DNA from: Candidatus Poribacteria bacterium
GTDB lineage: Bacteria; Poribacteria; WGA-4E; PCPOR2b
Length of the DNA stretch: 64,000 nt
Assembly (NCBI GenBank): GCA_965215015.1
Contig: OZ244042.1
Coordinates: 768,001-832,000 of the forward strand
Reading direction: 5' to 3'
This document shows, one piece after another, positions 7,949 through 57,100 of this stretch. The notes beneath the pieces were generated by a model. It did not search any database. It was not told the origin of the DNA and worked only from the letters and a program-made list of their open reading frames with translations. How positions within the stretch are numbered: position 1 is the first letter of the stretch; each line of letters opens with the position of its first letter. The position numbers and the translations under genes are program-made.

Positions 7949-8758
7949 ATGGATTTTGTGAAACTCACAGCGGCGCAACGCCAATTTTTTGATGAAAACG
8001 GCTATCTGGTCGTTCCAGATGTGTTATCGTCGGAGATAATTGACAAACTCACTCAGGTCAGCGACCGGTTAATCGAATCGTTTGATGCAGACGATGCTTA
8101 TGTTCAAAGGCGTCCCGGTATCGTCCAAGAACCAGATTTTCATCCCTTGGTGACCCAGTCACCGACGGTCCCCTTAGTTGCCCAACTGTTATCTCCTAAT
8201 ATTCAGCTGCATACAACAGCGATTATTTATAAGTTCCCAGAGCCGGCGGACGAAGAAACCGTTAACCAGCGAGGCTGGCATCGTGACAGCGGTCTTGCGG
8301 AGGATCTGAGTCATAGTAACCTGCCGCGTGTTAGTATCAAAGTCGGATACTGCTTGACAGATTTTAAGCAACCGCGTTCCGGCTTTACGCTCTTCGCACA
8401 GGGATCGCATCTGATAGATACCCCGTTACCTATCCCGAAAGGAGAGGTAGATCCCGCCAGAATGGTTGAACTCCGGCTCAACCCTGGAGATGCTTTCCTT
8501 TTTGAAAATCGTCTTTTCCATACTTCTGCCCCGAACCTGACCGATCGTGTCTCAAAGATGGTGATTTTTGGCTATGCTTACCGTTGGATGGGTGGGGCGC
8601 ACAGAGCAATGAGCCTTGTCCAACCTGATGAGACTGTCTTAGCGCAGGTTGACGATGTTGCCAAACAGTTGCTGGGAGCGACAAGCGATGGCTTAATTGA
8701 TTGGGCAAAACAACACGATATTTTCCCGGAGCCTACCCCGTGGGTGATGGAGGTCTGA
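7949..8758 (+). CDS. Phytanoyl-CoA dioxygenase (PhyH) family Fe(II)/2OG dioxygenase
   Basis: FFDENGYLVV, WHRD, GSH, LFHT. Confidence 0.88.
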   Translation: MDFVKLTAAQRQFFDENGYLVVPDVLSSEIIDKLTQVSDRLIESFDADDAYVQRRPGIVQEPDFHPLVTQSPTVPLVAQLLSPNIQLHTTAIIYKFPEPADEETVNQRGWHRDSGLAEDLSHSNLPRVSIKVGYCLTDFKQPRSGFTLFAQGSHLIDTPLPIPKGEVDPARMVELRLNPGDAFLFENRLFHTSAPNLTDRVSKMVIFGYAYRWMGGAHRAMSLVQPDETVLAQVDDVAKQLLGATSDGLIDWAKQHDIFPEPTPWVMEV

Positions 8759-8797
8759 TATTAGACTGTAGACTGCTGACGATTACGAGGTGAAGTT

Positions 8798-9622
8798 ATG
8801 TCCACAAAACTGACCGATACACATCTTGAAGAACTGGAAGTGAAAGGCTACGTTATCGTTCCGGGCTATTATACAGGCGAAACGTTGCGTGAAATGCAAG
8901 CCGCACAGCGAAGGGCACTCCCCACATGGGATGCAGTGAAGGCAGATCCACCGCAGAACCGGGCGATTCTCACCGATTTCCCACCGCCAGAGATAGCACT
9001 ACTGCGAGGCATCGTTGACCATCAGGCATGGACGTTTGCCAGAAAGTGGCTCAAGACAGAACATATCCATTTTCGCGCCGGTTGCATGATCGCCCGCTAT
9101 CCCGGTTTCAAGGGGGGTGGCGTAGGCAGTGACGCTGCTGGTTTACATATCGATAACGGAAATAACTCCTTGCTGCCTCCCTCTGACACATTGCGCGAAT
9201 TTGGTCAACTTGTCTTTTGGATGCATCTCGAAGATGTTGATGAAGACCAAGCCCCACTGCGGCTGCTTGCCAAGGAACACGGGCGCGACACGACCAAGTA
9301 CGAGCCCTTAATCTGCAAAGGTGGAACGCTGTGTGTGTTCACCAATTACACCTTGCACTCTGCGAGCGATTATCTCCGTGCGGACGGTCAACGCTTCACA
9401 TGGGGATTTGGGATTGGCAGAGCCGACAACTATTGGGAAGGGTTTAGACACTATACAGACAAGGGGAGGCACGCGGTGTTTAGTCAGTTCATCGGAACGC
9501 TGACGGCGAAAGAGCGTGAAGTTTTCCGCTTTCCACCGGCAGGGCATCCATACTACACACCACAAACCTTGGAGGCCTTGGAGGAACAGTACCCCGGCTG
9601 GAATGCAAACGGCGAGTATTAA
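8798..9622 (+). CDS. PhyH family Fe(II)/2OG dioxygenase
   Basis: KGYVIVP, LHIDN, TLHSA facial-triad pattern. Confidence 0.8.
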   Translation: MSTKLTDTHLEELEVKGYVIVPGYYTGETLREMQAAQRRALPTWDAVKADPPQNRAILTDFPPPEIALLRGIVDHQAWTFARKWLKTEHIHFRAGCMIARYPGFKGGGVGSDAAGLHIDNGNNSLLPPSDTLREFGQLVFWMHLEDVDEDQAPLRLLAKEHGRDTTKYEPLICKGGTLCVFTNYTLHSASDYLRADGQRFTWGFGIGRADNYWEGFRHYTDKGRHAVFSQFIGTLTAKEREVFRFPPAGHPYYTPQTLEALEEQYPGWNANGEY

Positions 9623-12069: not shown

Positions 12070-13061
12070 ATGAAATACCCGAAATGCAGTCGTCTCCCTC
12101 AAACTACATATACATTCAGGGGGTATCTCGCCGATTATCTCAGCGGCGTTACGGAACAGTGGCTGAAGGCAACACCATTGGCAAATCCGGGGATGTTAGA
12201 AATTTTTCGAGATCGAGATCGGCAGCGCCCAACTCGGTTACTGGCCTGCATTCGCACACCGGACACTGGGTGACTTACAACACACCGATGGACGGTGTAC
12301 GCCGCGCTAGTGCCCATGACATCGTGTTTCAGGCACGAGAAGACAGTCCCGAACTGAACTGTTGTAGTGTCAATGGTCCACGCGGGTTGGGTATAGTCAG
12401 CACCTGGGTATTGATGCGCTGCAGAGGCGGACTGATACTTAACAGGTATGGCTCATCCACCATGAAGGCTCAGTTATCATCAGAGGTAACGATTGAGTTA
12501 GTGCAGAAAACGGAGTATCCCCGTACAGGGAAGATTGCAATCAATGTCTCACCCTCACGTCCTACGCAGCTCGTCTTGAAATTACGCATCCCCTACTGGT
12601 CTTCCAAAACGAGGATCAAACTGAACGGTGAGCGTGTGAAATCGGTGCCGCCGGCAACCTACCTTGTAATGGATAGGGAATGGAAGGTTGGGGATAAAAT
12701 CGAACTTGAACTGGACATGTCGCTCCACGACTGGATTGGTGAGAAAGAGTGCGAAGGGAAGGCTTCCATTTACCGCGGTCCCATCCTGTTAACCTATGAT
12801 CGACGTCTCAACACGATGGGCCGCGATAAGATTCCCACGCTCAACGCCACGGCGATGAAAGAGCGGTTGATAGACAACAAAGATAACCTGCCAACTGTTG
12901 TGCTCATAGAGTATACTGCTCCAGATGGGCGCAAGTTGTGGCTCTGCGACTTTGGTAGTGCAGGCGAAAGTGGCTCTCCATATCGCTCATGGCTGCCGGT
13001 AGAGCAGATCAAAAAGACCCATTTTGCTTCAGATAATCCGCTACGTAGTGGACGCTCCTAA
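12070..13061 (+). pseudogene. GH127 (beta-L-arabinofuranosidase-like) glycoside hydrolase with an internal deletion and frameshift
   Basis: The N-terminus MKYPKC...NPGMLEIFRDRDRQ (ATG 12070 with RBS) is in one frame. After ~12230 another frame carries VTYNTPMDG, ELNCCSVNGPRG, TEYP, LRIPYW, REWKVGD and YRGPILL, typical of the GH127 C-terminal half. Confidence 0.7.
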
Positions 13062-13088: not shown

Positions 13089-14390
13089 ATGAGAATTCCC
13101 AATGTTTTGCGACGCACCCCTCAAGTTAAAAAGAATACAGTCGTTTCAACCCCCAACTCTGTAGACATTCCGAAACCAAGCCCAACAAAACCGAAGAAAT
13201 ATCTATGGTGGTGCAGTCTGCTTCACATCATCAACGACGGTTACATCTCCAGTCTATCCATTCTGCTTCCGTTCATCGCAGTAGATCTGAATCTCACCTA
13301 CACCCAATCCGGTCTCCTTAAAACTGCTAGTCATGGAGCGATAAGCGCGACCCAGATACCCGCCGGGATTCTGGCAGAACGACTCGGAGATATATTGATC
13401 CTAGGCATAGGCACAACGTGGTTTAGCCTGAGTTATATGGGGTTGATTCTGGCGTTCAGCTATCCTTTAGCATTGATACTGATCTTTGCGTCCGGGGTAG
13501 GTGGTGGGGTATATCATCCGGTGGGGACCGCCCTCGTCTCAAATGTTTATCCACCCGAAAAGGTGGGGCCTGCAATCAGCACCTTGAACTTTTTTGGCGA
13601 TGTTGGAAAGGTGCTCTTCCCAGCCTTAGCGGGAATCCTGGTCATCAGGATTGGCTGGGGAGCGAGCTGCGCGGTGTTGGGAACGATTGGGCTCGCAGCT
13701 TCTGTCTTGTATATCTTCTTTTTTAAAGCGGACATGGGTAGAAAAAGGAACCAAACCACACAGAAGATGGAAGAACAGACAGATGGTCGTGCAAAGTGGA
13801 GGACGTTTCAGGGTTGGGGCATAGTACAACCGACCCAGTTTACACTCTACTCTATCCTTGGACTTTTGGATAACGGTATTCGAGCCGCTGTTACGACGTT
13901 TCTGGCATTTTTGATCAAAATCCGTGTTGAGGCGGGTGCTGTAGGTGGGTTGATGTCCCTGACGTTTTTCGGAGGGGCTTTGGGGAAACTGTTGTGCGGA
14001 ATGCCGATTCAGAAATTGGGCATCAAAAAGATTATTTTGATCACAGAGTTATTGATGATACTTGGCTGCCTCGCCCTGCCTTCAGTGCCGTCGGGATGGG
14101 TTATTGTGCTGTTCCTACCATTGTTTGGGTTTATGTTAAATGGAACCTCCTCTGTCATCTATGTTGGAACAGCCCCGACGCTCAATTCGGAGTTTCGTAG
14201 CCGAGGTTATGCGTTGCACTATACCCTGAGTTTCATCGCTTCTGCAACCGCGCCATACCTTGCCGGCTTCGTTGGAGACACCTATGGCCTGAAAGCCATC
14301 TTCTACGTAAACGGTACGGTGATGCTATTTGCGCTGCCACTGGTGATATTTTTGAAAAACGGGGTACCTTCTGACGAAGCGTCCCACTAA
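13089..14390 (+). CDS. MFS transporter
   Basis: About 12 hydrophobic segments; HIINDGY, GILAERLG (motif A) and GGVYHPVG (FSR-like). Confidence 0.9.
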   Translation: MRIPNVLRRTPQVKKNTVVSTPNSVDIPKPSPTKPKKYLWWCSLLHIINDGYISSLSILLPFIAVDLNLTYTQSGLLKTASHGAISATQIPAGILAERLGDILILGIGTTWFSLSYMGLILAFSYPLALILIFASGVGGGVYHPVGTALVSNVYPPEKVGPAISTLNFFGDVGKVLFPALAGILVIRIGWGASCAVLGTIGLAASVLYIFFFKADMGRKRNQTTQKMEEQTDGRAKWRTFQGWGIVQPTQFTLYSILGLLDNGIRAAVTTFLAFLIKIRVEAGAVGGLMSLTFFGGALGKLLCGMPIQKLGIKKIILITELLMILGCLALPSVPSGWVIVLFLPLFGFMLNGTSSVIYVGTAPTLNSEFRSRGYALHYTLSFIASATAPYLAGFVGDTYGLKAIFYVNGTVMLFALPLVIFLKNGVPSDEASH

Positions 14391-15784
14391 TGGAAGCGCA
14401 ACGAAAACAGGTCTGCATCCTTCATCGCAAAACGCAGACGAATCGGGGTTCCAGCCAGCTTGCTGACATTGCTGCCACCCTCCCAACGAACGATCCGCTC
14501 CAATTCATCGCCGATAATCTCTGGACATTCGTCAAGGGTATAACCCGTAACGGGCACCCCACTCGCCTCCTGAATTTCGATGCGAAGACCTCCGGCGGCA
14601 CTGGTGGAATAATTAATCTCCAATTCCTCACCCGAAAACGTAAATGGTTTGGTCACCATTTCACCACCTATGTAGGGCGCACAGACCGAAGCGAAACCGT
14701 CAATTCGGAGCGTCATACGCTCCAGGTGTGCCGTTTGCTGGTCGTAATCCCGTTGGACATACAGGGACATCTCACTCGCCCCGGTTTGCACGACTCCAAG
14801 CGCGGGATAGTTTGTCCGCGAGGTCCAGTTGTTGTAACCGATTCCCGGACGGATGAAACTCTCCTTGAACGTGAAGTTGTAGTGGGTTGTGCCCGCCCGT
14901 GTAGTCAGCAGGACCCCATCCGAGATGTCTATCCCACCGCCGCTGACTGGATTCGGGCAGACCGCCGCTGACTGTGTTTCCGTCAACGCGGGTCTGTTGA
15001 AGTGGATGCGGCCGGGGAGTGAGATGTAGATGTGCGGAGCGCGAAAGTAGGGATGCATCTGGTTGGTGTACAAATGCTGCGAGGGGGTTGTGCTGCCGGT
15101 ATCGCTGAAGGTCATCGGGGTTTGCTCTGTCCAGTTGAGAAAATCTGTTGACGTTGCCCGTGCCGTCGATCGAATACGGGCACCGCTAACCATGTGACGG
15201 GCGTAGAGGACGTAACAGCCCTCAACTTCCGACCAGAACATCACATTCTGAGAATCAAAGTTGTTTTCCAAAGCTATTGGGACAATGGGTTCATCGCGTA
15301 ACTTAGTCCAGTGGATGCCGTCGGTAGACGTATAACCCACCAGACTGCTGGGCTGCTGCTGATCGCGTGCGTTCGCTTTATATCGCTCGGCTTCGGGGAC
15401 GCCTGGCCGTGTGTCGACAAATGCACAGAACTGACCGTTATGCGGTAGAATGGCATTATTCTTTGTTGACCCGTTAATCTTAACGAGACCGAGGTCCGGT
15501 TTTGTCCAGTGGATACCATCCCCGCTTTCCGCATAACAAGTTGGGTGCGGTCTCTGTCCCATGAGGCTGCCCCGATAGTACATGCGGTATATATCATTGT
15601 CCTTGAGAACCGTTGTGTAAAAAGCCAGACGGTCTTCCCATGGTTGATCGTATCGGATAGCAATCCCCGCCGGCTGTGGATGATGCAGCTTGAGGCTTGT
15701 CCTATCAAGCCTGTCAATGAGATAGCAATCAACGAACAACTCGCGTTGCGAACTGATGTCGCGGATTTCTGCGGTTTGAGGCAT
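14387..15784 (-). CDS. Uncharacterised glycosidase-like five-bladed beta-propeller (GH32/GH43-like fold)
   Basis: RELFVD, YRMYYRG, SGDGIHW/STDGIHW Asp-box repeats, FDSQN, LRIDGF, IRLRFAMKDADLFSLRF. Confidence 0.7.
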   Translation of the reverse strand: MPQTAEIRDISSQRELFVDCYLIDRLDRTSLKLHHPQPAGIAIRYDQPWEDRLAFYTTVLKDNDIYRMYYRGSLMGQRPHPTCYAESGDGIHWTKPDLGLVKINGSTKNNAILPHNGQFCAFVDTRPGVPEAERYKANARDQQQPSSLVGYTSTDGIHWTKLRDEPIVPIALENNFDSQNVMFWSEVEGCYVLYARHMVSGARIRSTARATSTDFLNWTEQTPMTFSDTGSTTPSQHLYTNQMHPYFRAPHIYISLPGRIHFNRPALTETQSAAVCPNPVSGGGIDISDGVLLTTRAGTTHYNFTFKESFIRPGIGYNNWTSRTNYPALGVVQTGASEMSLYVQRDYDQQTAHLERMTLRIDGFASVCAPYIGGEMVTKPFTFSGEELEINYSTSAAGGLRIEIQEASGVPVTGYTLDECPEIIGDELERIVRWEGGSNVSKLAGTPIRLRFAMKDADLFSLRFH

Positions 15785-16170: not shown

Positions 16171-19100
16171 ATGCGTACCATCACAAATCTTGTTCTCATC
16201 TTTTATATCTGCCTGTTCTATAACCTTATTCATGCGAGGACGGGGAACGCACAGGGTTTGTCACAATCCATTGGGGTTAGCTTTGCGGACTCTCAAAACG
16301 GAACCGTACCTACCAATGTCCCACAGGCTGAAGTCTCCCTATCAAGGCATGGGGACAACAAAACCGGAACTGAAGAAGCAGTTACACAAACTACCTCTGA
16401 GGGGAATCCCCTCCAGTACCGTTCTACCTCTGAACAACAGACTAGCTATGACGATGTTTATGGGCTTGAACTGGCGTTACCCGTCGCGGGGAGCGTGAAA
16501 GTGCAGGCGGCAGCAAAGGAAGCCATCATTGTCAAACTTGAAAAGCATGGGACAGGTAGCAACGAAGAAATCGTCCAAACCTACCTCGACACGGTGGAAC
16601 TAGAAATTTCCACAAAGGATGATATCTTACTGCTGACCCCGCGCCTCCCAAAATCTCCGGATTCAGACGCTAAGTTGACTCGTCTAAACTGCTCTATCGA
16701 AGCCCCTCCCGATCTAACCCTCAGAATCAAGACAACATCTGGAAATATTAGCGTACACCGTATCCGCGGCGACATGGTTTTGACAACGATGGTCGGCAAT
16801 GTTCATCTCGATGAAGTGATGGGAGCATATCAGGTTAGCCTTCAAGAAGGACAAATCTACGGAAAGATTCTCTTGACCGGCGGTGCCAACACATTTGAGA
16901 CGCAAGTCGGTTCAATAAATCTTGTGGTTATGGACGAGATTGCGGCAAAAATGACCCTCAAGACGCACGATGGCACAATTTCGTTGCGCTTGCCAGAAAG
17001 CTATCCAGCGGATCTCGAGATACAGGTCGAAAGCACAGATCAACGCGCCATTACCATTGACCTGCCGGTGGAGCTTGAAACCGCTTATGTGGGAGATGTC
17101 ATCCAAGGCTGGATCAACGATGGCGGACCTCTGATTCAAATGACCGCAAGCCAAGGAATCACCATTCTGCCTTCCCAATCTGTTTCCACTGAATCCGAAA
17201 CGGATGATAGTGAGGTGGAAGCCAACGATCCTTACACCGAAGCCGATCTGACTCCTCCGCCAACGGTTAACATCCCTCACGCGTTTGTACAGCCGGTAAT
17301 TGATGGCGATCTATTCGAGAAAGCTTGGGCAAACTCAGTGCCACTTTCCCCCTTCTATAAAGCAGATGCAACCACGCAGCCCGACGAACAGACACAGGGG
17401 TTTCTCCTTTGGGATGAACAGTACCTCTATATCGGTGCCAGAATATATGATTCGCAGATGAAGCGGCTTCCAATCACACAAACCAATCCCGATTCACCGG
17501 TTTGGCTTGATGACACCCTAGAAATTCTAGTGGATCCGAATCCGAAAACTCCGACTTATCACCACCTCATTATCAACCCAATTGGTACAGTTTTCGATCA
17601 GCGCATCGAAGCGGATTATTCGTTGGATTCCAATCTTAAAGCTGCTTATGAAAGAATAGCAAAACCCGATTGGGATTCTCGCGTCCAAGTTAAAACGCAG
17701 ATTGCTTCGACTTTTTGGAGCGTGGAGGTTGCGTTGCCCCGTAATGTACTTGAATCTCCCACCTCCGAAAGCTGGCGATTCAACCTACATCGCAAAATGC
17801 AGGGTCATTCCACCGAATCCGCATCGAAGCTGGCTGGGGAGTACAGCTACTGGTCACCGACTTATGACAAAGTTCGACCCTGGTGGCCCCATTGGCCCGA
17901 TCGGTTGGGTGTCATACACTTGGCCGAGACGAAAGATTCTGAACCTTCACAGAGCTTTGAATTCGTGGAGCAGTTCGCGCTTGCCGCCATTAAGGTTGAG
18001 GGAAACGGTGATATCCCGACATCGGAACTCCTTGAGAAGATCCCCTTCCAGCCGGGTGATATTATTTCCATTGACGAACTGTCATGGCTCAACCGTGAAC
18101 TTGAAGCACTCGACTGGTTTCGCGATGTGCACATAGAAACAAGCGAGGTCGCTAAAGAGACCGTTGAAAAACCGGGCGGATTGTCCGTCAGGGGAGAACC
18201 CAACTTACCAGTCACTGTCGCGCCGCGTGCCGGGGACTCTGGCGATGAGCCGCCTCCAATCCCTATCTTCAGGGTGAAGTTACGTATCCATGTGACCGAA
18301 GCACCAACAGTTACTGTGGATCGGCTCGATCTGGATCAAAATAGGTATTTTATATCTCCATTCCTTCGCAGAGCATTCGGGTTGAAGCCAGGACGTACTT
18401 CAGTTGAAGGACTAGAGATGAAATGTCAACTGATTGAAAACCTTTATAGGCACCACGGTTATGACCTTGTGCGGGTCCTCCATCAATTTTCCGGCACGCA
18501 TCTGTTGGTTGAGGTTGACGAAGGGCATTTAGACGACATCCGTTTTTCTGGGAACCGCCGAATTAAGCACACGGAGTTGATTGACGCGCTCGGTTTCAAG
18601 CAGGGAGACGCCTATAGCAAGCGGATCGGTACGGCGCGCCTCAATCAGATGCGAGCGAGGCTCAATAAAAATAACCTCTACTTCAAGAGAATCAAAAACT
18701 GGGAAGTGAAGCGGGAAGGGGACCAGAACGTACTTGCCATTGAGGTTGAGGAGCGGCCGCGAATCAACGTGAACTGGCGACCAGTCTTCGACTTTAACCG
18801 TGTACACGGTTTAATTTTAGGCGGAGGTGGGGCACTTTCAACGATAGAGGCGAACGCGCAAATCTATGGGGAGGTCAGCAACGGACTGTCAAGCAAAATT
18901 TGGAATTATCAACTGGGGGCTGAAAAGACCTGGTTTGACCGCCATGCCCTGAGTATTGGCGGAAGCGTTTACAAGCGGGCGGATACCAACGCCTATACTG
19001 GATTGTCCGAAGGTAAAGAATTCCTTTCTGCCCTCCTCTTTGGTGACACCTTTTTGGATTATTATAAGCGCGAGGGATATCAGGCCCGGGTGAAGGGGAA

Positions 19101-19890
19101 TTTCACCTCATCAATGCACATCACGTTGGAATTCACTGATGAAGACCACGGAATCTTATCTAAGTCAACCGATTGGAGTATGTTTAATAAAAGCGTTCCA
19201 AAACGGAGTAATTTGCGAATTGACGAAGGTCATTTGCGTAGCGTAACTTTGAGTTATCATTTTGATAGCCGGAAGGGCCTTGCACATCAAATACGGGATT
19301 TCCCGAGTTTCCCGATACTCGATTCCCCTACCAGGTCCGGCTGGCAGGGGAATTTTTCCGTCGAATCCGCGGATAAACGGCTTAAAAGCGACTTTGATTT
19401 TAACCTCTATCGTTTTACGATTGTGCGCGACAATCAACTGTTGAGCAACCACTATCTGGACTTTCGTCTGGAGGGGGGCTTCTCTGATGGGCCGCTTCCC
19501 AGGCAACGCCTTCTTCCTCTGGGCGGAATTGGTTTACGCGGCTACGATTTCAAAGAATTCATTGGGAATAATATGCTCCTTTTCAATGTAGAATACCGGG
19601 TTCACTTTGGAAAAATCACATATCTGGATGAAAACGAAGGGCCACTAGGCGCGGTGAAGGCTTTCTTGGATACAGGATATACCTGGTTTGATGATGAAAG
19701 CCTCGCGCTCAATCGCTTTAATACATCAGTTGGGGTCGGATTGTCTTTCTTCATCCATCCGTCTTTTACCTTTCAGCTTGAAATCGCGCGTGCCTGGCAG
19801 AAAGGGCGTGCCATTACACCCTTCTTACGTCTGGCAGGGCGGAAGGAACATTACATTACTTCCCTCTTACGTCTGGCACGAATTTTTTGA
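16171..19890 (+). CDS. Omp85-superfamily outer membrane protein with N-terminal DUF4097-like and CBM9-like domains and three POTRA domains
   Basis: Signal peptide; beta-repeat region (IKTTSGNISV, LKTHDGTISLRLP); CBM9-like motifs (PVIDGDL, LLWDEQYLYIG, DDTLEILVDP, WSVEVALP, WRFNLHR); POTRA starts (IKVEGN, LDLDQN, IRFSGN); barrel with LRGY motif and C-terminal Phe. Confidence 0.8.
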   Translation: MRTITNLVLIFYICLFYNLIHARTGNAQGLSQSIGVSFADSQNGTVPTNVPQAEVSLSRHGDNKTGTEEAVTQTTSEGNPLQYRSTSEQQTSYDDVYGLELALPVAGSVKVQAAAKEAIIVKLEKHGTGSNEEIVQTYLDTVELEISTKDDILLLTPRLPKSPDSDAKLTRLNCSIEAPPDLTLRIKTTSGNISVHRIRGDMVLTTMVGNVHLDEVMGAYQVSLQEGQIYGKILLTGGANTFETQVGSINLVVMDEIAAKMTLKTHDGTISLRLPESYPADLEIQVESTDQRAITIDLPVELETAYVGDVIQGWINDGGPLIQMTASQGITILPSQSVSTESETDDSEVEANDPYTEADLTPPPTVNIPHAFVQPVIDGDLFEKAWANSVPLSPFYKADATTQPDEQTQGFLLWDEQYLYIGARIYDSQMKRLPITQTNPDSPVWLDDTLEILVDPNPKTPTYHHLIINPIGTVFDQRIEADYSLDSNLKAAYERIAKPDWDSRVQVKTQIASTFWSVEVALPRNVLESPTSESWRFNLHRKMQGHSTESASKLAGEYSYWSPTYDKVRPWWPHWPDRLGVIHLAETKDSEPSQSFEFVEQFALAAIKVEGNGDIPTSELLEKIPFQPGDIISIDELSWLNRELEALDWFRDVHIETSEVAKETVEKPGGLSVRGEPNLPVTVAPRAGDSGDEPPPIPIFRVKLRIHVTEAPTVTVDRLDLDQNRYFISPFLRRAFGLKPGRTSVEGLEMKCQLIENLYRHHGYDLVRVLHQFSGTHLLVEVDEGHLDDIRFSGNRRIKHTELIDALGFKQGDAYSKRIGTARLNQMRARLNKNNLYFKRIKNWEVKREGDQNVLAIEVEERPRINVNWRPVFDFNRVHGLILGGGGALSTIEANAQIYGEVSNGLSSKIWNYQLGAEKTWFDRHALSIGGSVYKRADTNAYTGLSEGKEFLSALLFGDTFLDYYKREGYQARVKGNFTSSMHITLEFTDEDHGILSKSTDWSMFNKSVPKRSNLRIDEGHLRSVTLSYHFDSRKGLAHQIRDFPSFPILDSPTRSGWQGNFSVESADKRLKSDFDFNLYRFTIVRDNQLLSNHYLDFRLEGGFSDGPLPRQRLLPLGGIGLRGYDFKEFIGNNMLLFNVEYRVHFGKITYLDENEGPLGAVKAFLDTGYTWFDDESLALNRFNTSVGVGLSFFIHPSFTFQLEIARAWQKGRAITPFLRLAGRKEHYITSLLRLARIF

Positions 19891-19964: not shown

Positions 19965-22151
19965 TCACGGCTTTGAGAGTTTTACCGCCTTAATGCGACT
20001 ATTGTAGTGATCGCAAATCAACAGTATGTCTTTCCCGTAGAAACAGAGTCCGTGCGGTTCGTTCAGACTGGCTTCGGTGGCGGGGCCTCTATCCCCTGCG
20101 TCGCCCGGCGTATCGCTGCCGGCAACCGTTTGAAGCGTCCCATCGGCGGCGACCCGGCGGACCCGGTTGTTGCGCGAATCGGAAACGTATACACTCCCGT
20201 CCCCGGTGACCGCTAATCCCAACGGCTTGTGAAGCCGTGCCTCTAGGGCAGGCCTGCCATCGGGGGAAAACCCCGCCTCACCACAACCGACAACAGTCAT
20301 GATAATACCGTCGGTGTCCACCCTGCGCACAACATGGTGAGTGAGGTCGGAAAAATAAAGATTTCCCTTTGCATCAAACCGGAGTGCCGATGGGCTCCCG
20401 ATGCGCGCCGCTGTTGCGGGCCCTCCGTCCCCGGTGTAGCCTTGGACACCAACCCCTGCCACTGTGCTGATGTGCCCCATATCAGCGTCAATCCTGCGAA
20501 TCCGACCGGCAGCGTCTCCCAGATAGATATCCCCATCGGGTCCGTGTGTAACCGACCAAACAACCGTCAATCCAGCTCCTGAAGCCGGCCCGCCATCACC
20601 CTGATCTGCACCTTCGCCTGTTCCCGCCACAGTATGGATCACGCCATTCTTATCCACCCGTCGTACCCGCCCATTCAGTGTATCGGCTATTACAATACGG
20701 CCGCTCCTGTCTACCGATACATCGTAGGGATTCAAAAAGTACGCTTCAGTCGCAGGGGCATTGTCCCCTCCATAAGCTCTGCCGCCGCAGCCGACAACGG
20801 TTTGGATAATTCCGGTGACCGGATCAATTGCTCGTATTCGATCGTTCTGCATATCCGCAAAATAGATATGTCCGTCCGGACCGACACAAATCCCCCTTGG
20901 ACAAGAGAGGAACGCCTCGGTAGATGGACCCCCATCACGGATGTTGTCGCCCCCCAAAACAGTCGTTACGACGCCGGTTTGGGGGTCAACCCGGCGTAAA
21001 CGCCCTGAAGAATCACTGTAGAAAACAGTGCCATCGGGATCAGCCCAGATGCCGGACTCGATGGGATTGCATTTCGTTTTAGGCCCGGGCACCCCCTCTT
21101 CACCCCAACCGGGGATGCCGGTCCCCGCGAGCGTCGTCACAATACCGGTTTGGGCATCCACTTTACGCACTCTGAGACCACCGACCTCACCAACATACAG
21201 ATTGTCGTGAACATCAATGAAGATAGCGTCCGGCGTATGTGTGCTTGCCTCAACGGCAGGGCAACCATCGCCGTTGGACGCCGCTTGACCTGTGCCGAAA
21301 ACGGTTGTAATTGTTCCTGTCTGCATATTAATCTTGCGAACCCGATTGTTGCCGTTATCGCAGACATAGAGATCGCCTTTGGAGTCGAATGCTAGATGTT
21401 CAGGGAATCCGAAGGCTGCCTCCGACGCTGGCCCGCCATCGCCATGAAACCCGGCGAAGGTGTAGTTGGCACCGCTGTAGGGTCGGCTGATTCCCTGCTC
21501 CAACGGATAGTGACGGGTATTCTGACCTGCGAAGGTTTCAATGATACCGGTCTTTGCATCGACTCGCCGCACATTGCTATCCCATTTACCACACACAAAG
21601 ATATTTCCCTCGGTATCAACCGCCACGCCGGTTGTCGTGTCAAACTCAGCACCGAGTGCAGGGCCTCCATCTCCGCCCCGTCCCATCGCCCCCGAACCAA
21701 CCACGCGGGTGATGATACCGGTCTTATAATCGATACGCCGGACTGTATTCGGGCCTTCGTCGGGGCCTCTCGCGCCCAGTTGAGAAAAGAAAAGGTTACC
21801 CTCTTTGTCCAGGCAAAAGTCGTGAGGCGTGTACACCCGCGCATCAATGGCGGGGCCACCATCGCCAGAAACCCCTGGCACACCGTCTCCGGCGAAGGTA
21901 TGCAACATACCGTCCTGATCGATGCGCCAGATACGGTGGGTACGGATGTCGGCGACGATTAGGTCCCCATCAGGGCGTCGTACTACGCCCATGGGCCAGC
22001 CGATATCTGCGTCCTTAGCGGGTATGCCATCGCAGTAGCCGACCCCTGCAATACTGACGATGGTATTGGTTTGCAGTATCTCGAGAAGTTTAGGTTGATT
22101 CAATGTTGTTAGCTCCCCATCTGATAAGGGCGCGGACAGGTTGTTACACAC
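19965..22151 (-). CDS. NHL-repeat (beta-propeller) protein
   Basis: About 12 repeats of GDGGPA..A....P.....D..G.LY..D..N.RVR.VD..G.I.TVAG; no clear signal peptide. Confidence 0.88.
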   Translation of the reverse strand: MCNNLSAPLSDGELTTLNQPKLLEILQTNTIVSIAGVGYCDGIPAKDADIGWPMGVVRRPDGDLIVADIRTHRIWRIDQDGMLHTFAGDGVPGVSGDGGPAIDARVYTPHDFCLDKEGNLFFSQLGARGPDEGPNTVRRIDYKTGIITRVVGSGAMGRGGDGGPALGAEFDTTTGVAVDTEGNIFVCGKWDSNVRRVDAKTGIIETFAGQNTRHYPLEQGISRPYSGANYTFAGFHGDGGPASEAAFGFPEHLAFDSKGDLYVCDNGNNRVRKINMQTGTITTVFGTGQAASNGDGCPAVEASTHTPDAIFIDVHDNLYVGEVGGLRVRKVDAQTGIVTTLAGTGIPGWGEEGVPGPKTKCNPIESGIWADPDGTVFYSDSSGRLRRVDPQTGVVTTVLGGDNIRDGGPSTEAFLSCPRGICVGPDGHIYFADMQNDRIRAIDPVTGIIQTVVGCGGRAYGGDNAPATEAYFLNPYDVSVDRSGRIVIADTLNGRVRRVDKNGVIHTVAGTGEGADQGDGGPASGAGLTVVWSVTHGPDGDIYLGDAAGRIRRIDADMGHISTVAGVGVQGYTGDGGPATAARIGSPSALRFDAKGNLYFSDLTHHVVRRVDTDGIIMTVVGCGEAGFSPDGRPALEARLHKPLGLAVTGDGSVYVSDSRNNRVRRVAADGTLQTVAGSDTPGDAGDRGPATEASLNEPHGLCFYGKDILLICDHYNSRIKAVKLSKP

Positions 22152-33370: not shown

Positions 33371-34825
33371 TCATTCAAAAGCAACGGAGAAGAGTTCTGC
33401 AGAGCGCAGTTTCACGTGCAAGACAATCGGTTTCCCCTCTGGCACATTGATATCGGACTCGCCGTTCCATGTTACAATCTTGTTCGACCAATCGCCGGTG
33501 AGTGGATCGCAGTCGGCCATAGAACGTCCCACCATCCCCTCAATCCCAATGCCAACCTTACCCGCCATCGGTGCACGGAAATTCAGTCGAATCTGCCGAC
33601 CTGAAGGGAGAATCGGAACAGTCCAAAATTCGCCCTCGTTGTCGGTGGTCACCGCACAGAGCCGGTCTTTCTGCCACCATGCCCACCCCATGTCCGCTGC
33701 AGCAAAAATCGCGGGCCAGCGTGGAAACTTGTGCGGGTACATCGTCCCGGAGTAGGGAATGGCAATCTTGTCCGCACCGAGGGACTGGAGGTCTTTCCCT
33801 GTACCGATAAATTCGCAATCCCATTTCCCTAATTCGCCGGGCGTCAGAATGGGACCACCGGGGATCTGATTCCACGCGATACCATCCTCGCTTGAATAGA
33901 GCCGCACCTCGCTACGTTCAGTGTACCGGTGATAGAGCATTGGAAGCATCAACTGATACTCCGGAAGTTCGGGATAGGAGCTATAACCGTTGAGATAGAA
34001 ATCATAGTCCGGCGGATCTTCAAGGCGGGGCCAAATAATAGGCACCACAGGCGTCCAGTGCATAAAGTCCTCCGCTTCTGCCCGTCCGATCCAACGTCGT
34101 CCGTTGCGAAACATACGGGTGTACATCACGTACCGTTCCAGCGTTTCGTTCCACAATACGGTGGTGTCCGTATCGCTCGGATGCAACATAAACGGTTCAG
34201 GTAAGACGGTCCAGTTGCTCCCGTCGGGCGAAACGGCGGCGAACATTCCGAATCGTCGCTCCCCTGATATCCGGTCATCCCGATGGCGCGGTTGACGGTT
34301 GAAATACGCTGTAAGCTGTGGCTGAAACATGCCTTCCTCGAATTGGGCGCAATAGATAAACTTGTAACGCTGGGATTCGGGGGCATGTGGATCAATGAAA
34401 AAGGTCATCCCGTCGAAGCCACGCTGTCCTGGCACATTGATTTCGTCCCACGTCGGTTCACTCCAGTGAAAGCCATCCAGCGATTCAATCCCACAGATGG
34501 CGACAGAGGTGATGGTGTCGGTATGTGCCACTGATCCTGAGCCCAACATTGAAATCCCGTTGACCTCAATATACCAAGTGCGATACCGCTCCCCATCGAA
34601 GATGACTCTGCCCCAACCTCTGTAACCTTCCATTTTCCCCGCTTTACGCGCCGGTTGTGCCTGCAATCGGATGCCACGTGGGACCAACCGAGGCTCAGCA
34701 CGCATGGGGACCTGTGGTCCGGGAGGCGTGCCGACCCGATAATGCTCCCCCTCCGCTGTCAACCAAGCAACCGCTCCACACTGTATATCCCGCCAATCTG
34801 TAAACAGAATTTTCTTTCTTCTCAC
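33371..34825 (-). CDS. Uncharacterised glycosidase-like beta-propeller, related to 14387-15784
   Basis: SLDGFHW/SPDGSNW/SEDGIAW Asp boxes, SDTD, RYVMYTR, and the C-terminus PIVLHVKLRSAELFSVAF. Confidence 0.7.
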   Translation of the reverse strand: MRRKKILFTDWRDIQCGAVAWLTAEGEHYRVGTPPGPQVPMRAEPRLVPRGIRLQAQPARKAGKMEGYRGWGRVIFDGERYRTWYIEVNGISMLGSGSVAHTDTITSVAICGIESLDGFHWSEPTWDEINVPGQRGFDGMTFFIDPHAPESQRYKFIYCAQFEEGMFQPQLTAYFNRQPRHRDDRISGERRFGMFAAVSPDGSNWTVLPEPFMLHPSDTDTTVLWNETLERYVMYTRMFRNGRRWIGRAEAEDFMHWTPVVPIIWPRLEDPPDYDFYLNGYSSYPELPEYQLMLPMLYHRYTERSEVRLYSSEDGIAWNQIPGGPILTPGELGKWDCEFIGTGKDLQSLGADKIAIPYSGTMYPHKFPRWPAIFAAADMGWAWWQKDRLCAVTTDNEGEFWTVPILPSGRQIRLNFRAPMAGKVGIGIEGMVGRSMADCDPLTGDWSNKIVTWNGESDINVPEGKPIVLHVKLRSAELFSVAFE

Positions 34826-37467: not shown

Positions 37468-39099
37468 TTGCCATCAATAAAACTTCGACTCTCTAAAAGG
37501 CAGCTTATTATCCTTTGTGCAATCGTCATCCTCCTGCTCCTGATTATGCTGGTTTATCATCAGACCTCTCTCTGGGAGCCGGGTCAGAGTCTCTTTACTT
37601 TCCTCCCCGATGCACCAATCTGCTATGTAAGTGTGAAGGACCTTGGAAGCTTCATCGAGACCTTTCAACGGAGTGAATTTGGGGTGCAAACGGCCCAGAT
37701 GCCCATCCTTGCAGAGATTCGTAGGGAATTCTGGTGGCGGCGGCTCATGTATCAGAAGCAGCGGTGGGAGTTGGAAATGGGTGGGAAACTCGACCTCAAC
37801 CGGCTGCGAGGATACTTGGGTGAAGAAGCGATCTTGAGTATCTATAAGCGGAACGGTAAAATTTCATTTCTGCTCATCACCGCCCTCGGAGCGCAGCAAA
37901 AACTGGAAATTGTCACACTCACTGCGACAGCATCCATCAACCCTAAATACAAACGGTTGAAAGAGAATTATAGAAAACTGGAAATCAATACTATCACAGG
38001 CTATCCACAAGATTTCAGCTATGCCTTTATTGGCAAGATTGGTCTGTTAGCAACAGATAAATCCTTGATCCAGGATACGGTTGACATCTACGCTGAACAG
38101 AAGCAGAGCTTTACCGCGCTAGCGGCTACGGGAGACTATCTGGGCAAACAGTATGAAACCGCTCGTAACACCATCTATATTAATCCCGCCAAATTTACTG
38201 AAGTTTTTAAGTTTGCCCCATCCCTCAAATCATTATTACAGGGAATCGATGTGTGGACGTTCAGCAATCGCTACGAGGATGGCGTTATCTACTCACAACA
38301 CCGAATGATTAGGAACACCGATTCGCAATCCCGACAATCCCCACGTTTGATAGACGAAAAACTGTTTTCGATGCTTCCCGCAACAACCGCATTTCTGATT
38401 GCAAATAATGATGCAAACTTCACAGGGTTGTGGCAACAGGCGAAAACAAATTTGCCCTTGAAATATCAGGGAAATGAGATTGATTTATCGCGTCATCTTG
38501 AAGCTAGAACTGCGCTGGCATTGTTCCCTCCCCCGGCAGGTGTCCCCGCGTTAGTGCCTTCGGTGCTCCTGATTTGCCCAATTCAGGACCGAGCGAACTT
38601 AGAAGCGGCTTTAACAAAATTTAAGCGGACCAAGATTTCTATCAACGGTAAACCGATCCGATTTCCACCTCCGGTAAAGCATCGAGACATTGAGCTACAA
38701 CCGATACAACTTCAACTTGGTCTCATCTTCGCCCTAAAGGGAGGATATGCGCTTCTCGATAACTACTGGGTCGTCGGCACAACGCTCGGCGGAGTGAAGT
38801 CTGCTATCAACGCCTCCACTGGGCAAGAGGTTGCGCTGGCTGATACGAAAATGCCGGATTACTTACAGCGTCCAAGCCACAGTCATATCCGGATTCAACC
38901 GAGCCTTTTGGTTCCGGAATTGAAACGTCTGCTTCCGATCGCCAGTTTGATGTTTCCACAACAGATTGAGGCAAAACTGATTCGGCGCATAATGGATAAC
39001 CTATCCCCATTGGAAGCACTCGGATTGGTCACCGCCGGCATCAATTTCAACGATGATTTTGTGGAGGCCGAAGTTCAGATCACTTTGGAAGGACAGTAA
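37468..39099 (+). CDS. Membrane-anchored hypothetical protein (DUF3352-like)
   Basis: N-terminal TM anchor followed by two repeats beginning FLPDAP / MLPATT, a pattern seen in DUF3352 proteins. The family call is tentative. Confidence 0.6.
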   Translation: MPSIKLRLSKRQLIILCAIVILLLLIMLVYHQTSLWEPGQSLFTFLPDAPICYVSVKDLGSFIETFQRSEFGVQTAQMPILAEIRREFWWRRLMYQKQRWELEMGGKLDLNRLRGYLGEEAILSIYKRNGKISFLLITALGAQQKLEIVTLTATASINPKYKRLKENYRKLEINTITGYPQDFSYAFIGKIGLLATDKSLIQDTVDIYAEQKQSFTALAATGDYLGKQYETARNTIYINPAKFTEVFKFAPSLKSLLQGIDVWTFSNRYEDGVIYSQHRMIRNTDSQSRQSPRLIDEKLFSMLPATTAFLIANNDANFTGLWQQAKTNLPLKYQGNEIDLSRHLEARTALALFPPPAGVPALVPSVLLICPIQDRANLEAALTKFKRTKISINGKPIRFPPPVKHRDIELQPIQLQLGLIFALKGGYALLDNYWVVGTTLGGVKSAINASTGQEVALADTKMPDYLQRPSHSHIRIQPSLLVPELKRLLPIASLMFPQQIEAKLIRRIMDNLSPLEALGLVTAGINFNDDFVEAEVQITLEGQ

Positions 39100-40606: not shown

Positions 40607-41371
40607 ATGAGTTTAACAAATACACAAAAAGTGGATTATGAACGTGATGGATTTGTGATTTATGGGCCCATGCTATCAGAGGACAGGTTAGAAGTCCTGC
40701 GTGAGCGTGTGGATGCCTTGGCAGACGGTTCGCATCCCAATGCGGAGAAGGCAGGAGTGAGGCTGGAAGCTGCTGCTCAGAGAGGTGAACTTGAGGACGT
40801 GCTCCGTCGTGACAAGGTTTGGCAACTTTTAGACCCCCACCGTTACGATGAAGTGATTTTTGATCATGCCCGTAACCCGAAAATCCTAGACATCGTTTCG
40901 GAGCTGCTTGGTACGGAGGATATCAAACTATTCCACACCCAAACCTTGATGAAGCCTGCTTTCCATGGTTCAATTGTTTCTTGGCATCAGGATTCGGCTT
41001 ACTGGACTTCCGTGGATCCGCCGACACTTGTGAGTTGCTGGACAGCGTTGGACGATGCGACGGAAGAGAACGGTTGTGTGCGGTTGCTACCCGGCAGTTA
41101 CAAAAAGGGACTTTGGCCCCATGAACGACGAGATTTCCTGCACGCTCAAGGCATAGACGAATCAACGGCGGTTCCAGTGGTGTTGAAGGCTGGTGGATGT
41201 AGTTTTCATCACAGTTTGACCATTCACGGCAGTGGCGAAAATCGCACGCCACATCGCCGTCGGGGACTTGCGACCAGTTACATGCGAGCGGATTCTAAGT
41301 GGGTTGGCGATCCAGATCAAAAACGGGATTTCCCACTCTTGCGAGGCAGGGAATACCCTGGCCGTGTTTGA
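40607..41371 (+). CDS. PhyH family Fe(II)/2OG dioxygenase
   Basis: YERDGF, MKPA, WHQD, WTALDDATEENGC, TIHGSGEN..RRR. Confidence 0.92.
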   Translation: MSLTNTQKVDYERDGFVIYGPMLSEDRLEVLRERVDALADGSHPNAEKAGVRLEAAAQRGELEDVLRRDKVWQLLDPHRYDEVIFDHARNPKILDIVSELLGTEDIKLFHTQTLMKPAFHGSIVSWHQDSAYWTSVDPPTLVSCWTALDDATEENGCVRLLPGSYKKGLWPHERRDFLHAQGIDESTAVPVVLKAGGCSFHHSLTIHGSGENRTPHRRRGLATSYMRADSKWVGDPDQKRDFPLLRGREYPGRV

Positions 41372-46434: not shown

Positions 46435-47265
46435 CTAAATGCTAGTCTTAATATTATTTGCATCCTGCGATACATCCAACCGTTGCCTATTATGCTGCAC
46501 TGCATCGGGGAAATTCCCTTTCAGATGGTCAAGAACCTCCTCAATAGGGCATTCGCACCGCAAATTAGCAAACGGAAATTCCCCCGTTTTCCGGAATAGC
46601 GCATCGTTCCGGGCGTGGAAATCTCCCAGACGGCTTGTGAACTGTCCCCAGTGCCCCATGGTATATCGAACTTCAGCTCTCGGCACTGCACTCTGTTTCC
46701 AACGCTCTGGAAACAGTTTCTGAAATGGTGGAACGGAATTAAGCCAACTCCCGCAACGGACGATTTCGACCTCGGGACGCCTGACCTGAGAATCCTCCAA
46801 CAACCGGATGAGGGAGGCGGCAAACGGAACCCACATATCGCTCAGAGGCGATCGGGGTTGATAGACGTTCAGGATGTGGATGTTAAGCTGATCTGCCCCG
46901 TAGTCGTAACTCCAGCACTCGTAGGGCCGTGTCTCCGGTGATGGGAGCGCATCCGGGCATTTCCTCAGGTATGGCGACAATAGGTCTAACCCCGCTGCTT
47001 CAAGCTGCTCGGTGGAGGGTTCATCTATATAATGGTCGAAAATCGTCCGCAGTCCTTCCAGAATCTCTTTCCACTTCGGACCGACCTCCTCACTGGATGG
47101 GTGGTGTTTGCCATCGTAAAGCCACGTGTTCCGGTAAATATTTACCTGACCGCTCACCAACCCTTCAAAGTCACTTTCCCCTTCGCAAAAACGTTTATGG
47201 ACAAACCAGAGACTGAGTTTGGTAAATTCTCTCACATAGTTGATGTGTATCGAGTCATGTTGCAA
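46435..47265 (-). CDS. Hypothetical protein, possibly with a GNAT-like C-terminal domain
   Basis: Long ORF with an AGGAGG RBS before TTG 47265. The LNIHI...CGSWLN pattern is reminiscent of GNAT-like C-terminal domains (tentative). Confidence 0.65.
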   Translation of the reverse strand: MQHDSIHINYVREFTKLSLWFVHKRFCEGESDFEGLVSGQVNIYRNTWLYDGKHHPSSEEVGPKWKEILEGLRTIFDHYIDEPSTEQLEAAGLDLLSPYLRKCPDALPSPETRPYECWSYDYGADQLNIHILNVYQPRSPLSDMWVPFAASLIRLLEDSQVRRPEVEIVRCGSWLNSVPPFQKLFPERWKQSAVPRAEVRYTMGHWGQFTSRLGDFHARNDALFRKTGEFPFANLRCECPIEEVLDHLKGNFPDAVQHNRQRLDVSQDANNIKTSI

Positions 47266-47318
47266 GGTGCACTTCCTCCTGCTGATAATTGTTCTGTTCA
47301 CTGCATGACGCGGGTAGG

Positions 47319-48949: not shown

Positions 48950-49042
48950 CGGAAATCGGACTCTCAGTTGCTTGGCTTAGATCCGGTATTCCCCTACATG
49001 AAGATTTGGGCTGCGTATCCGATTATAAGAAGGAAGAACTGT

Positions 49043-56960: not shown

Positions 56961-57100
56961 AATTGCCACCTCCCGTTTGGCGTGTGAATTAATGATACCC
57001 AAGCGCGGGGTCGAGGACACCAATCGGTGCCCTTATTACCAAAGGGTAATTACTATACCACCGCCCCCCAATCGAGTCAAGCGAAAACCGATCACGACAA

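Follow-up and report, generated by a model that had tools for sequence, protein, structure and literature searches.

A Toastrack–CBM9–POTRA–Omp85 fusion protein of Poribacteria as a possible outer-membrane anchor for a putative glycan-binding site

Gene organization and domain architecture

The stretch of DNA analyzed here (64 kb; henceforth, the window) carries on its forward strand a single open reading frame (16159/16171–19890) in which a Toastrack domain, a CBM9-like domain and three POTRA units precede an Omp85-type barrel (Table 1). Translation from the ATG at 16171, which corresponds to the start methionine of the homologues, yields 1239 residues. The gene is unpaired in the 64-kb window, its upstream neighbor being divergent and its downstream neighbor convergent, and a scan for promoters and terminators returned fewer sites than were found in shuffles. 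Ala22 of the signal peptide is almost invariant in homologues; no lipobox was seen by eye, and the cysteine present lies within the hydrophobic stretch and is not kept in homologues.

Table 1. Coordinates of the Omp85 gene and its features in the window
Feature	Position	Strand	Basis or occurrence
Whole gene, 1239 aa, Toastrack-CBM9-3xPOTRA-Omp85 barrel	16171..19890	+	Pfam, AlphaFold2, fold searches
Sec-type signal peptide, residues 1-22	16171..16236	+	By eye
Variable low-complexity N-terminal segment, residues 23-85	16237..16425	+	
Toastrack (DUF4097) beta-helix, residues 86-334	16426..17172	+	Pfam; 3pet and 4qrk fold matches
Acidic low-confidence linker, Toastrack to CBM9	17173..17262	+	14-34 aa in 78 homologues
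CBM9/DOMON-like domain, residues 365-585	17263..17925	+	Pfam, fold match, alignment
W445, aligned with clamp Trp71 of TmCBM9-2	17503-17505	+	
PWWPH motif with W571/W572	17881-17886	+	
Short CBM9-to-POTRA1 linker	17926..17970	+	12-23 aa in 78/78 homologues
POTRA1, with variable low-confidence insert (6-56 aa in homologues)	17971..18300	+	AlphaFold2
POTRA2	18307..18519	+	Pfam, AlphaFold2
POTRA3	18526..18753	+	Pfam, AlphaFold2
16-strand Omp85-type barrel, clade-specific PxxxFNRVHG and STDWS..RxNxRI motifs	18763..19839	+	AlphaFold2, Foldseek
Loop-6 LRGY motif	19534..19545	+	R 67/78, H 11/78
Strand-13 FLDTG motif, lid-lock partner	19663..19677	+	D 77/78
42-nt tandem duplication, last strand repeated, 76% identical	19796..19878	+	
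Terminal Phe codon	19885-19887	+	

The AlphaFold2 model of residues 85–1239 (mean pLDDT 77.7, pTM 0.48) contains a beta-helix domain, a beta-sandwich, three POTRA units and a barrel of 16 strands, as counted from the strand list. Together with Pfam and fold searches, it bears out the domains that a preliminary description had assigned (DUF4097, CBM9, POTRAs and barrel), including the two N-terminal regions, which do match DUF4097/Toastrack and CBM9; the LRGY motif and the terminal phenylalanine were likewise found where that description had placed them. It had overlooked the 42-nt duplication, which among the copies aligned is private to that of the window, being missing in the three relatives.

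Toastrack domains are right-handed beta-helices whose N-terminal strands are intertwined. The first domain scores above the Pfam cut-off for DUF4097 (23.9 bits against 22.9). Its fold matches 3pet (Z 13.6, rmsd 3.8, 186 residues aligned), 4qrk (Z 12.5, rmsd 3.4, 154 aligned) and 3lyc (Z 12.5–13.6 for the three), with weak matches to TPS domains (Z 7.7–8.1). The N-terminus had earlier been called adhesin-like, a label that traces to the titles of structural-genomics entries; the paper describing Toastrack sees it instead as a protein-interaction scaffold (bioRxiv 10.1101/2020.09.24.301986).

The second domain is recognized by Pfam as CBM9_1 (40.6 bits; cut-off 23.4) and matches TmCBM9-2 (1i82) with Z 19.4 (rmsd 2.5, 173 aligned). 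In 78 homologues, the residues of the CBM9 site are kept almost throughout: W445 in 75, W571, W572 and R541 in 77 each, and H465, Q477, D378, E383 and D447 in all 78. W571/W572 fall in the region expected for clamp Trp175 of TmCBM9-2, a correspondence by region, not by residue. Over 37 rows, the share of columns at least 95% conserved is 17% for CBM9, 16% for the barrel, 9% for Toastrack and 4–12% for the POTRAs; the excess in CBM9 is modest, since mean pairwise identity is alike across all domains (0.43–0.54). Clamp residues decay in the deeper relatives P0152, P0157 and P0176, and the CBM9 fold need not mean sugar binding, as CBM9.1 illustrates (PMC8280721). Conservation in the family nonetheless suggests that the domain carries a conserved putative glycan-binding site. 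A heme-binding DOMON domain was also considered, prompted by matches to EbdC (Z 13.2) and NxrC (Z 12.7) and by conserved His and Met residues; it was set aside because the CBM9 matches are stronger (Z 19–20) and the Met position is Leu here and Phe or Leu in most of the deeper relatives aligned.

The POTRAs score well above the Pfam POTRA cut-off (60.2 bits against 21.3), whereas the ShlB-type model, POTRA_2, remains below its own. No conserved helix or cleavage motif was seen by eye in the linkers.

The barrel shows the hallmarks of the Omp85 superfamily: a 16-strand C-terminal barrel preceded by POTRAs, with the lid-lock motif (loop-6 (L/V)RG(F/Y) plus strand-13 FxDxG) defined in PMC11358297. 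The glycine of the loop-6 motif is kept in 78 of 78 homologues. Pfam Omp85 (PF01103) does not match the window copy and matches many homologues; NCBIfam Omp85_fam matches the window copy (E 5.8e-11), under its cut-off. Structure searches of the barrel (Foldseek, VIA-align) return BamA, TamA and Sam50, BamA being the best Foldseek match (E 1.7e-23), and TamA and BamA are among the best fold matches at Z 16–18. By profile, the barrel matches E. coli TamA with 87.6% probability and E. coli BamA with 2.4%, the latter giving no usable alignment. The dedicated models fail in both cases: BamA TIGR03303 gives 55.5 bits (cut-off 297.15) and TamA NF047950 gives 18.3 bits (cut-off 625). The most conserved parts are barrel segments with outer loops, where 19–23% of columns are at least 95% conserved. 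A glycine at position −4, the position of G807 in strand 16 of E. coli BamA, occurs in only seven of 76 loci; phenotypes of BamA G807 are reported in PMC10135246, and the title of a work cited in this connection links the strand-16 glycine to lateral gating.

Distribution of the fusion

The fusion is present in all 80 genome loci kept (35–76% identity), 76 of them titled Poribacteria, and most of the best 120 of 149 matches cover at least 90% of the query. A single ORF of more than 1100 aa is found in 78 of the 80 loci, L007 being split and L068 truncated. Split or frameshifted copies (L007, L015, P0081, P0082, P0092, P0093) possibly reflect sequencing errors, and 23 shorter matches to the POTRA3–barrel region (42–89% identical) are read as fragments of the same family. 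The fusion, which might have been an assembly artefact, is hence genuine. Neither a described Omp85 subfamily nor a paper combining Toastrack, CBM9, POTRAs and an Omp85 barrel was found in a literature search, and PF06452 and PF13349 appear nowhere in Table S2 of the Omp85 survey (PMC4104836), in agreement with the earlier statement that no such N-terminus had been described for the superfamily. The protein is an outer-membrane protein common to uncultured sponge-associated Poribacteria, with an architecture that we did not find described.

Beyond this family, members of the barrel clade carry other N-terminal modules: bactofilin-like, DUF4252, LamG, CotH or Toastrack alone. Some close relatives of the barrel have neither POTRAs nor CBM9 (P0148, P0151, P0162, P0221, P0289–P0291) and another has CotH instead (P0150); in POTRA-less relatives the module lies some 25–60 residues ahead of the barrel. 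The AU test rejects a grouping of the POTRA-less members into one clade (p-AU 6.3e-6, with groups named after a first tree was seen), and three changes fall on the tree; a tree of 73 rows was a quick reconstruction with long-branch outgroups. Loss or gain of POTRAs occurred more than once in the clade. The first barrel strands match DUF5686, under its cut-off, and the nearest Atlas clusters score 0.94–0.97.

Gene neighborhood

The loci fall into at least five unrelated gene neighborhoods. A functional link to the nearby esterase, glycosidase and MFS genes, proposed earlier, was rejected: of the 80 loci, only 15 have an esterase gene, 10 a glycosidase gene and 17 an MFS gene close to the Omp85 gene, an opposite-strand gene separates them from it in the window, and in the GH127 glycosidase gene there most of the catalytic domain is gone. 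Farther downstream, 46 of the 80 loci have a TatT gene and 45 a DctP gene, both belonging to a TRAP-type transporter, with a GcvT-family gene in between and spacing that ranges from overlap to 2 kb; they are missing in 34 loci, the window's group included. Bam-locus genes, tamB and TpsA are not among the common neighbor families, and E. coli RseP, Skp and LpxD, whose genes flank bamA in its typical neighborhood (rseP-bamA-skp-lpxD), and TamB (N-terminal 629 aa) gave no tblastn match in the 80 loci and the window, although such misses are weak with queries this distant. When a POTRA-less relative was compared with annotated plasmids, two weak matches came back, uninformative as to gene context.

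Proposed role and alternatives

We favor, with about even confidence, a reading of the protein as an accessory (non-BamA) Omp85 barrel that serves as an outer-membrane anchor and holds the putative glycan-binding site in the periplasm. Along an established pathway, Sec would export the protein and the C-terminal signal would direct insertion of the barrel; the barrel retains the lid-lock and is probably not laterally gated, and the three POTRAs would serve as a spacer. CBM9, at the tip of this arm, may clamp a periplasmic glycan (cell-wall glycan, periplasmic glucan or incoming oligosaccharide), and the Toastrack beta-helix would offer a protein-docking surface. The likely role would be to tie the outer membrane to periplasmic glycan, or to monitor the latter, in envelope upkeep. 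Toastrack and CBM9 are most likely periplasmic, not surface-displayed: on geometric grounds, a linker of 12–23 residues is too short for CBM9 to travel back along three POTRAs and out via the barrel, and no POTRA is known outside the periplasm (PMC11116518). A periplasmic Omp85 passenger has precedent, because the patatin domain of PlpD stays there (PMC11116518), which together with the short linker leaves unsupported the type Vd analogy behind the earlier proposal of a type-V-like system. The accessory, non-insertase reading draws on the low TIGR03303 and TamA scores, the rarity of the strand-16 glycine, the absence of tblastn matches to E. coli RseP, Skp, LpxD or the N-terminal part of TamB in the 80 loci and the window, and the close barrel relatives that do without POTRAs and CBM9 or have CotH in their place.

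TamA-type insertases, too, have lid-lock motifs and three POTRAs, which counts against a non-insertase reading, and a housekeeping role in assembly would account equally well for the occurrence of the protein throughout the phylum. An accessory OMP-assembly factor of TamA/BamA type, tethered to the cell wall by CBM9 and binding substrates or partners through Toastrack, is accordingly a possibility, if a rather unlikely one. Its fold and TamA-profile matches, the conservation in every locus kept and the likening of WD40-Omp85 to a BamA–BamB fusion agree with this role, and Heinz and Lithgow regard assembly as the most conservative assumption where a subfamily is unknown (PMC4104836); yet the strand-16 glycine is missing in 69 of 76 loci, the loop-6 Arg is His in 11 of 78, close relatives do without POTRAs, no tamB or bam-locus neighbor was found among common neighbor families or with the distant E. 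coli queries, and the scores lie far under the BamA and TamA cut-offs. Of the earlier suggestion of an assembly factor tethered to a periplasmic glycan, the tether fits better than a surface adhesin does, and the assembly factor is doubtful. The least probable reading takes the protein for the principal BamA of Poribacteria, to which extra domains have been fused: it is present across the phylum, true BamAs with fewer than five POTRAs exist (PMC4104836, Table S2) and one source automatically named the homologue P0044 BamA, but TIGR03303 failed, the neighborhoods are varied and hold no bam-locus genes that we found, and some copies are split or frameshifted, possibly through sequencing errors.

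Self-display of type V kind, with the beta-helix and CBM9 crossing their own barrel to serve as a glycan adhesin on the cell surface or to be cleaved and released, is improbable. Known passengers of type V systems have a beta-helix fold, with the weak TPS matches noted above, and sister barrels carry LamG, CotH, CBM9 and beta-helices, modules that are often extracellular; POTRA-less relatives, moreover, place the module close to the barrel. Against this stand the short CBM9–POTRA1 linker, the periplasmic PlpD passenger, linkers devoid of a visible conserved helix or cleavage motif, poorly conserved sugar-enzyme neighbors, and conserved loops and lid-lock that would presumably cap the pore. A gated pore for oligosaccharide uptake, with CBM9 trapping the incoming sugar in the periplasm, would draw on the conserved outer-loop segments and the downstream TatT/DctP genes; we consider it very unlikely given the intervening GcvT-family gene, the variable spacing and the loci without TatT/DctP, and we know of no Omp85 solute importer.

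Implications

For a long time, Omp85 proteins were credited with roles in assembly or translocation alone. PlpD showed that a periplasmic enzyme can be carried on the same scaffold, and the Poribacteria family would add a glycan-binding version conserved on a phylum-wide scale. It also draws attention to a wider barrel clade without a name, in which modules are exchanged and POTRAs were lost repeatedly. The members of that clade form a natural series in which to study the purpose of POTRAs and of the lateral gate, and to see whether a passenger is ever displayed by its own Omp85 barrel. A bolder extension, which we regard as unlikely, would make the barrel clade an undescribed Omp85 subfamily and a modular platform, neither insertase nor TpsB. 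In its boldest form, at least the POTRA-less members would thread their beta-helical module through the 16-strand barrel, an Omp85-based single-chain autotransporter in the place vacated by PlpD, and the Poribacteria protein would display a glycan-binding domain to the host. The CBM9 domain, once isolated, would give direct access to the glycans of the Poribacteria envelope.

Comparison with known systems

BamA shares the fold and the lid-lock motifs, but typically has five POTRAs to the three found here, and no bam-locus genes were found among the common neighbor families or with the distant E. coli queries. The resemblance to TamA, TamL and BamA-like proteins with one to three POTRAs is closer, comprising three POTRAs, 16 strands and the loop-6 and strand-13 motifs, and the POTRA count fits the BamA-like group of Heinz and Lithgow; the Poribacteria protein differs in some 500 additional N-terminal residues and in having no lipid anchor, no tamB that we found and no strand-16 glycine. 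TpsB (type Vb) has two ShlB-type POTRAs and a co-transcribed TpsA, whereas POTRA_2 is below its cut-off here and the flanking genes in the window lie on the opposite strand. The patatin-like type Vd proteins carry a patatin domain and one POTRA; our protein has no patatin match and three POTRAs.

Among its N-terminal modules, the Toastrack domain shares the right-handed beta-helix of described members (4qrk); for these (DUF4097/DUF2807/DUF2154), an intracellular location and a connection with Psp/Lia stress systems have been proposed, in a paper whose main text does not contain the word "barrel" (bioRxiv 10.1101/2020.09.24.301986), whereas the Poribacteria copy follows a signal peptide and is joined to an outer-membrane barrel. 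The CBM9 domain has in common with TmCBM9-2 (1i82), CkCBM9.3 (7nwn) and BACUNI_03838 (4jpq) the whole-domain fold (Z 19–20), a Trp at the first clamp position and conserved acidic residues, and differs in sitting on a membrane barrel instead of a xylanase and in its His-rich site and PWWPH motif. DUF5686 barrels and the unnamed Omp85 clusters of the Atlas, commonest in Gemmatimonadota, are all uncharacterized and have different N-terminal modules. The nearest architectural parallels are PlpD/FplA, WD40-Omp85 and Metallo-Omp85 (PMC4104836), which likewise combine, within a single polypeptide, one or more non-POTRA domains with an Omp85 barrel that follows them, PlpD also with a short linker to its POTRA; the Poribacteria protein is set apart from them by two non-catalytic modules, three POTRAs and a barrel of another clade.

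Results

The gene under study is a single open reading frame (ORF) encoding 1239 aa from its ATG, and its start methionine is the same as in aligned homologues. The product matches the Pfam models DUF4097 (23.9 bits; cut-off 22.9), CBM9_1 (40.6; 23.4) and POTRA (60.2; 21.3), and the initial strands of the barrel give a DUF5686 match under the cut-off. Residues 85-1239 were modelled with AlphaFold2 from 85 sequences (pLDDT 77.7); the model combines a beta-helix and a beta-sandwich with three POTRAs and a 16-strand barrel (strands counted by hand), although the relative placement of these domains is not fixed because pTM is 0.48; its top Foldseek match is BamA. In a separate model of the two N-terminal domains, used for fold comparison, CBM9 matches 1i82 (Z 19.4, rmsd 2.5, 173 aligned) and 4jpq (Z 20.4, rmsd 2.9, 196 aligned) across the whole domain, and the Toastrack (DUF4097) domain matches the Toastrack-type 3pet (Z 13.6, rmsd 3.8, 186 aligned). 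Pfam, model and fold matches thus bear out the preliminary description of an Omp85 barrel fused to DUF4097-like and CBM9-like domains. That description did not mention a diverged 42-nt tandem duplication that repeats the last barrel strand. The duplication is not present in the three relatives aligned, the model takes its first copy as strand 16, and it offers a natural test of which copy acts as the C-terminal insertion signal.

Its fold and its loop-6/strand-13 lid-lock, a motif defined in PMC11358297, place the protein in the Omp85 superfamily: among 78 homologues the loop-6 residue is R in 67 and H in 11, and the strand-13 residue is D in 77. The position matching G807 of E. coli BamA, a residue at which substitutions make cells more sensitive (PMC10135246) and which a title cited in that paper ties to gating, is Gly in 7/76 loci and in 10/134 wider relatives with a terminal Phe.

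The protein search identified 149 relatives among 7999 scored candidates, the best 120 being mostly full-length at 38-77% identity. A species-level genome set, searched with patterns derived from Poribacteria-like sequences, encoded a relative in 138 of 204 matched stretches; the 80 loci kept, on which taxon counts are based, comprise 76 titled Poribacteria and 4 titled 'uncultured bacterium'. A single ORF exceeding 1100 aa occurs in 78 of these 80 loci. The fused gene is therefore conserved in Ca. Poribacteria; the architecture search across genomes confirms the fusion as genuine. Identity of 66-77% to named records makes this phylum the very likely source of the window. Split or frameshifted copies, through sequencing error or real decay, occur at two loci (table) and in the protein matches P0081, P0082, P0092 and P0093.

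Opposite-strand genes flank the studied gene on both sides in the window. Across the 80 loci its commonest neighbours are GcvT-family (53), TatT (46) and DctP (45) genes, together with divergent kinase-like and xylose-isomerase-like genes (46 each). TatT and DctP (TRAP-type transporter) lie 2-3 genes downstream, behind the GcvT-family gene, in 45-46 loci. The proposed tie to neighbouring esterase, glycosidase and MFS genes did not hold: AXE1 (15/80), GH127 (10/80) and MFS (17/80) occur only among the window's close relatives, and the window's GH127 gene is broken: roughly the first 55 residues read in one frame and residues 340-614 in a second, and most of the catalytic domain is missing; the kept part is 84% identical to the copy at locus L015. 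E. coli RseP, Skp, LpxD and the N-terminal part of TamB gave no tblastn match in the 80 loci, a weak test with such distant queries. Five window ORFs without a Pfam match encode 288-543 aa.

Coordinates of the studied gene and of features in the window and at homologous loci
Feature	Location	Strand	Remark
Studied gene	16171-19890	+
Duplicated last barrel strand	19796-19878	+
Broken GH127 gene	12070-13061	+
NHL/teneurin-like beta-propeller repeat protein	19965-22151	-	728 aa; convergent with studied gene; 14/80 loci
ORF without Pfam match	14387-15784	-	kept beside studied gene in 15/80 loci
ORF without Pfam match	33371-34825	-
ORF without Pfam match	37468-39099	+
ORF without Pfam match	46435-47301	-
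ORF without Pfam match	49950-50984	+
Bacterial sugar transferase gene	47319-48752
Cohesin + PKD domain protein	48968-49912	+	adjoins sugar transferase gene
PhyH-family dioxygenase genes	7949-9622, 40607-41371, 56094-57023, 60253-61074		five in 64 kb
TatT/DctP transporter genes, examples	L038:15752-16657; L046:17303-18343
Split or frameshifted copies	L007:9854-13656; L015:9989-13486

A barrel-only profile search returned 213 representatives at E <=1e-30. A Pfam scan of 74 of the 150 listed, chosen with a preference for length and high score, found bactofilin-like matches in 16 and DUF4252 in 6 (several of both under the Pfam cut-off), LamG in 3, CotH and Toast_rack_N in 1 each, DUF4097 without POTRA or CBM9 in 4, and a POTRA match in 16. 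Custom profiles detected POTRAs in 23 of 149 sequences, an undercount because fragments are frequent among them and the profiles overlook divergent POTRAs. The full architecture recurs in five deeper relatives (P0147, P0149, P0152, P0157, P0160). Toastrack joined directly to the same barrel, without CBM9 or POTRA (P0148, P0151, P0162, P0221, P0289-P0291), recurs in 4 clusters with 194 member sequences and is possibly a second paralogue in Poribacteria. Related barrels carry a CotH kinase (P0150), LamG (P0211, P0224, P0229; two with HEAT repeats) or bactofilin-like and DUF4252 modules (P0164-P0284).

In a barrel tree of 29 rows (28 taken from a 73-row tree, with P0289 added and the E. coli outgroups removed), three Toastrack-plus-barrel forms join the Poribacteria clade (support 100/99), and P0148 and the CotH-bearing P0150 form a pair (100/100). 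A single POTRA-less clade was rejected (p-AU 6.3e-6, 3 changes on the tree; p-AU 0.012 with the test restricted to the five nearest rows), the AU groups having been defined after the first tree was seen. The barrel thus tolerates the exchange of modules as well as the loss or gain of its entire POTRA arm, and this module-swapping clade is the most interesting lead behind the Poribacteria architecture.

Discussion

We give an even chance to a predicted function as a periplasmic glycan-binding anchor, in which the barrel would hold CBM9 on the periplasmic side. In 78/78 homologues the linker between the last CBM9 strand and POTRA1 is only 12-23 residues long, and an attached, surface-displayed CBM9 would need a far longer tether; we therefore infer a periplasmic location. 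The same linker argues against the type-V-like surface display proposed initially and makes a self-displayed adhesin improbable; the 'adhesin-like' label on the N-terminus also fell away, the word 'adhesin' occurring only in structural-genomics titles. The paper on Toastrack (bioRxiv 10.1101/2020.09.24.301986) presents this domain as a beta-helical scaffold for interactions in envelope-stress systems and proposes an intracellular location for it. W445 of the CBM9 domain aligns with Trp71, a clamp residue of TmCBM9-2 (PMC8280721), and W571/W572 fall in the region expected for the second clamp residue, with no exact pairing. Retention of these Trp residues and of neighbouring His, Gln, Arg and Asp in 72-78 of 78 homologues argues that a ligand site is maintained, with no particular ligand implied.

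Counting against the anchor are near-equal conservation in all domains, decay of clamp residues in some deeper relatives, and the three POTRAs and lid-lock common to TamA-type proteins, a likeness that lends some plausibility to an accessory assembly factor, which we consider possible at perhaps half the weight of the anchor. Loss or gain of the POTRA arm and module swapping among barrel relatives are more in keeping with an anchor than with an essential insertase. A sugar pore seems very unlikely, and a role as main BamA slightly more so, the protein scoring far under the BamA model cut-off.

CBM9, DUF4097 and bactofilin architectures are absent from the complete Table S2 and from a term search of four supplements of a ten-subfamily Omp85 survey (PMC4104836), in which one CotH + Omp85 protein is present. 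Literature covering few subscription journals returned nothing joining Omp85 with Poribacteria or POTRA with CBM9, off-topic matches only, judged by their listings, for Poribacteria with BamA, and, among the matches listed, only Listeria work for Toastrack with outer membrane. An unnamed 59-member Atlas cluster combines POTRA, CBM9_1 and Omp85. The phylum-conserved architecture is real, and no description of it was found in the literature searched; within that literature and the survey material, the preliminary statement that no described Omp85 subfamily has such an N-terminus stands. The protein also scores far under the TamA model cut-off. Omp85 proteins with fused N-terminal domains are a known kind, to which it adds the combination of CBM9 and Toastrack.
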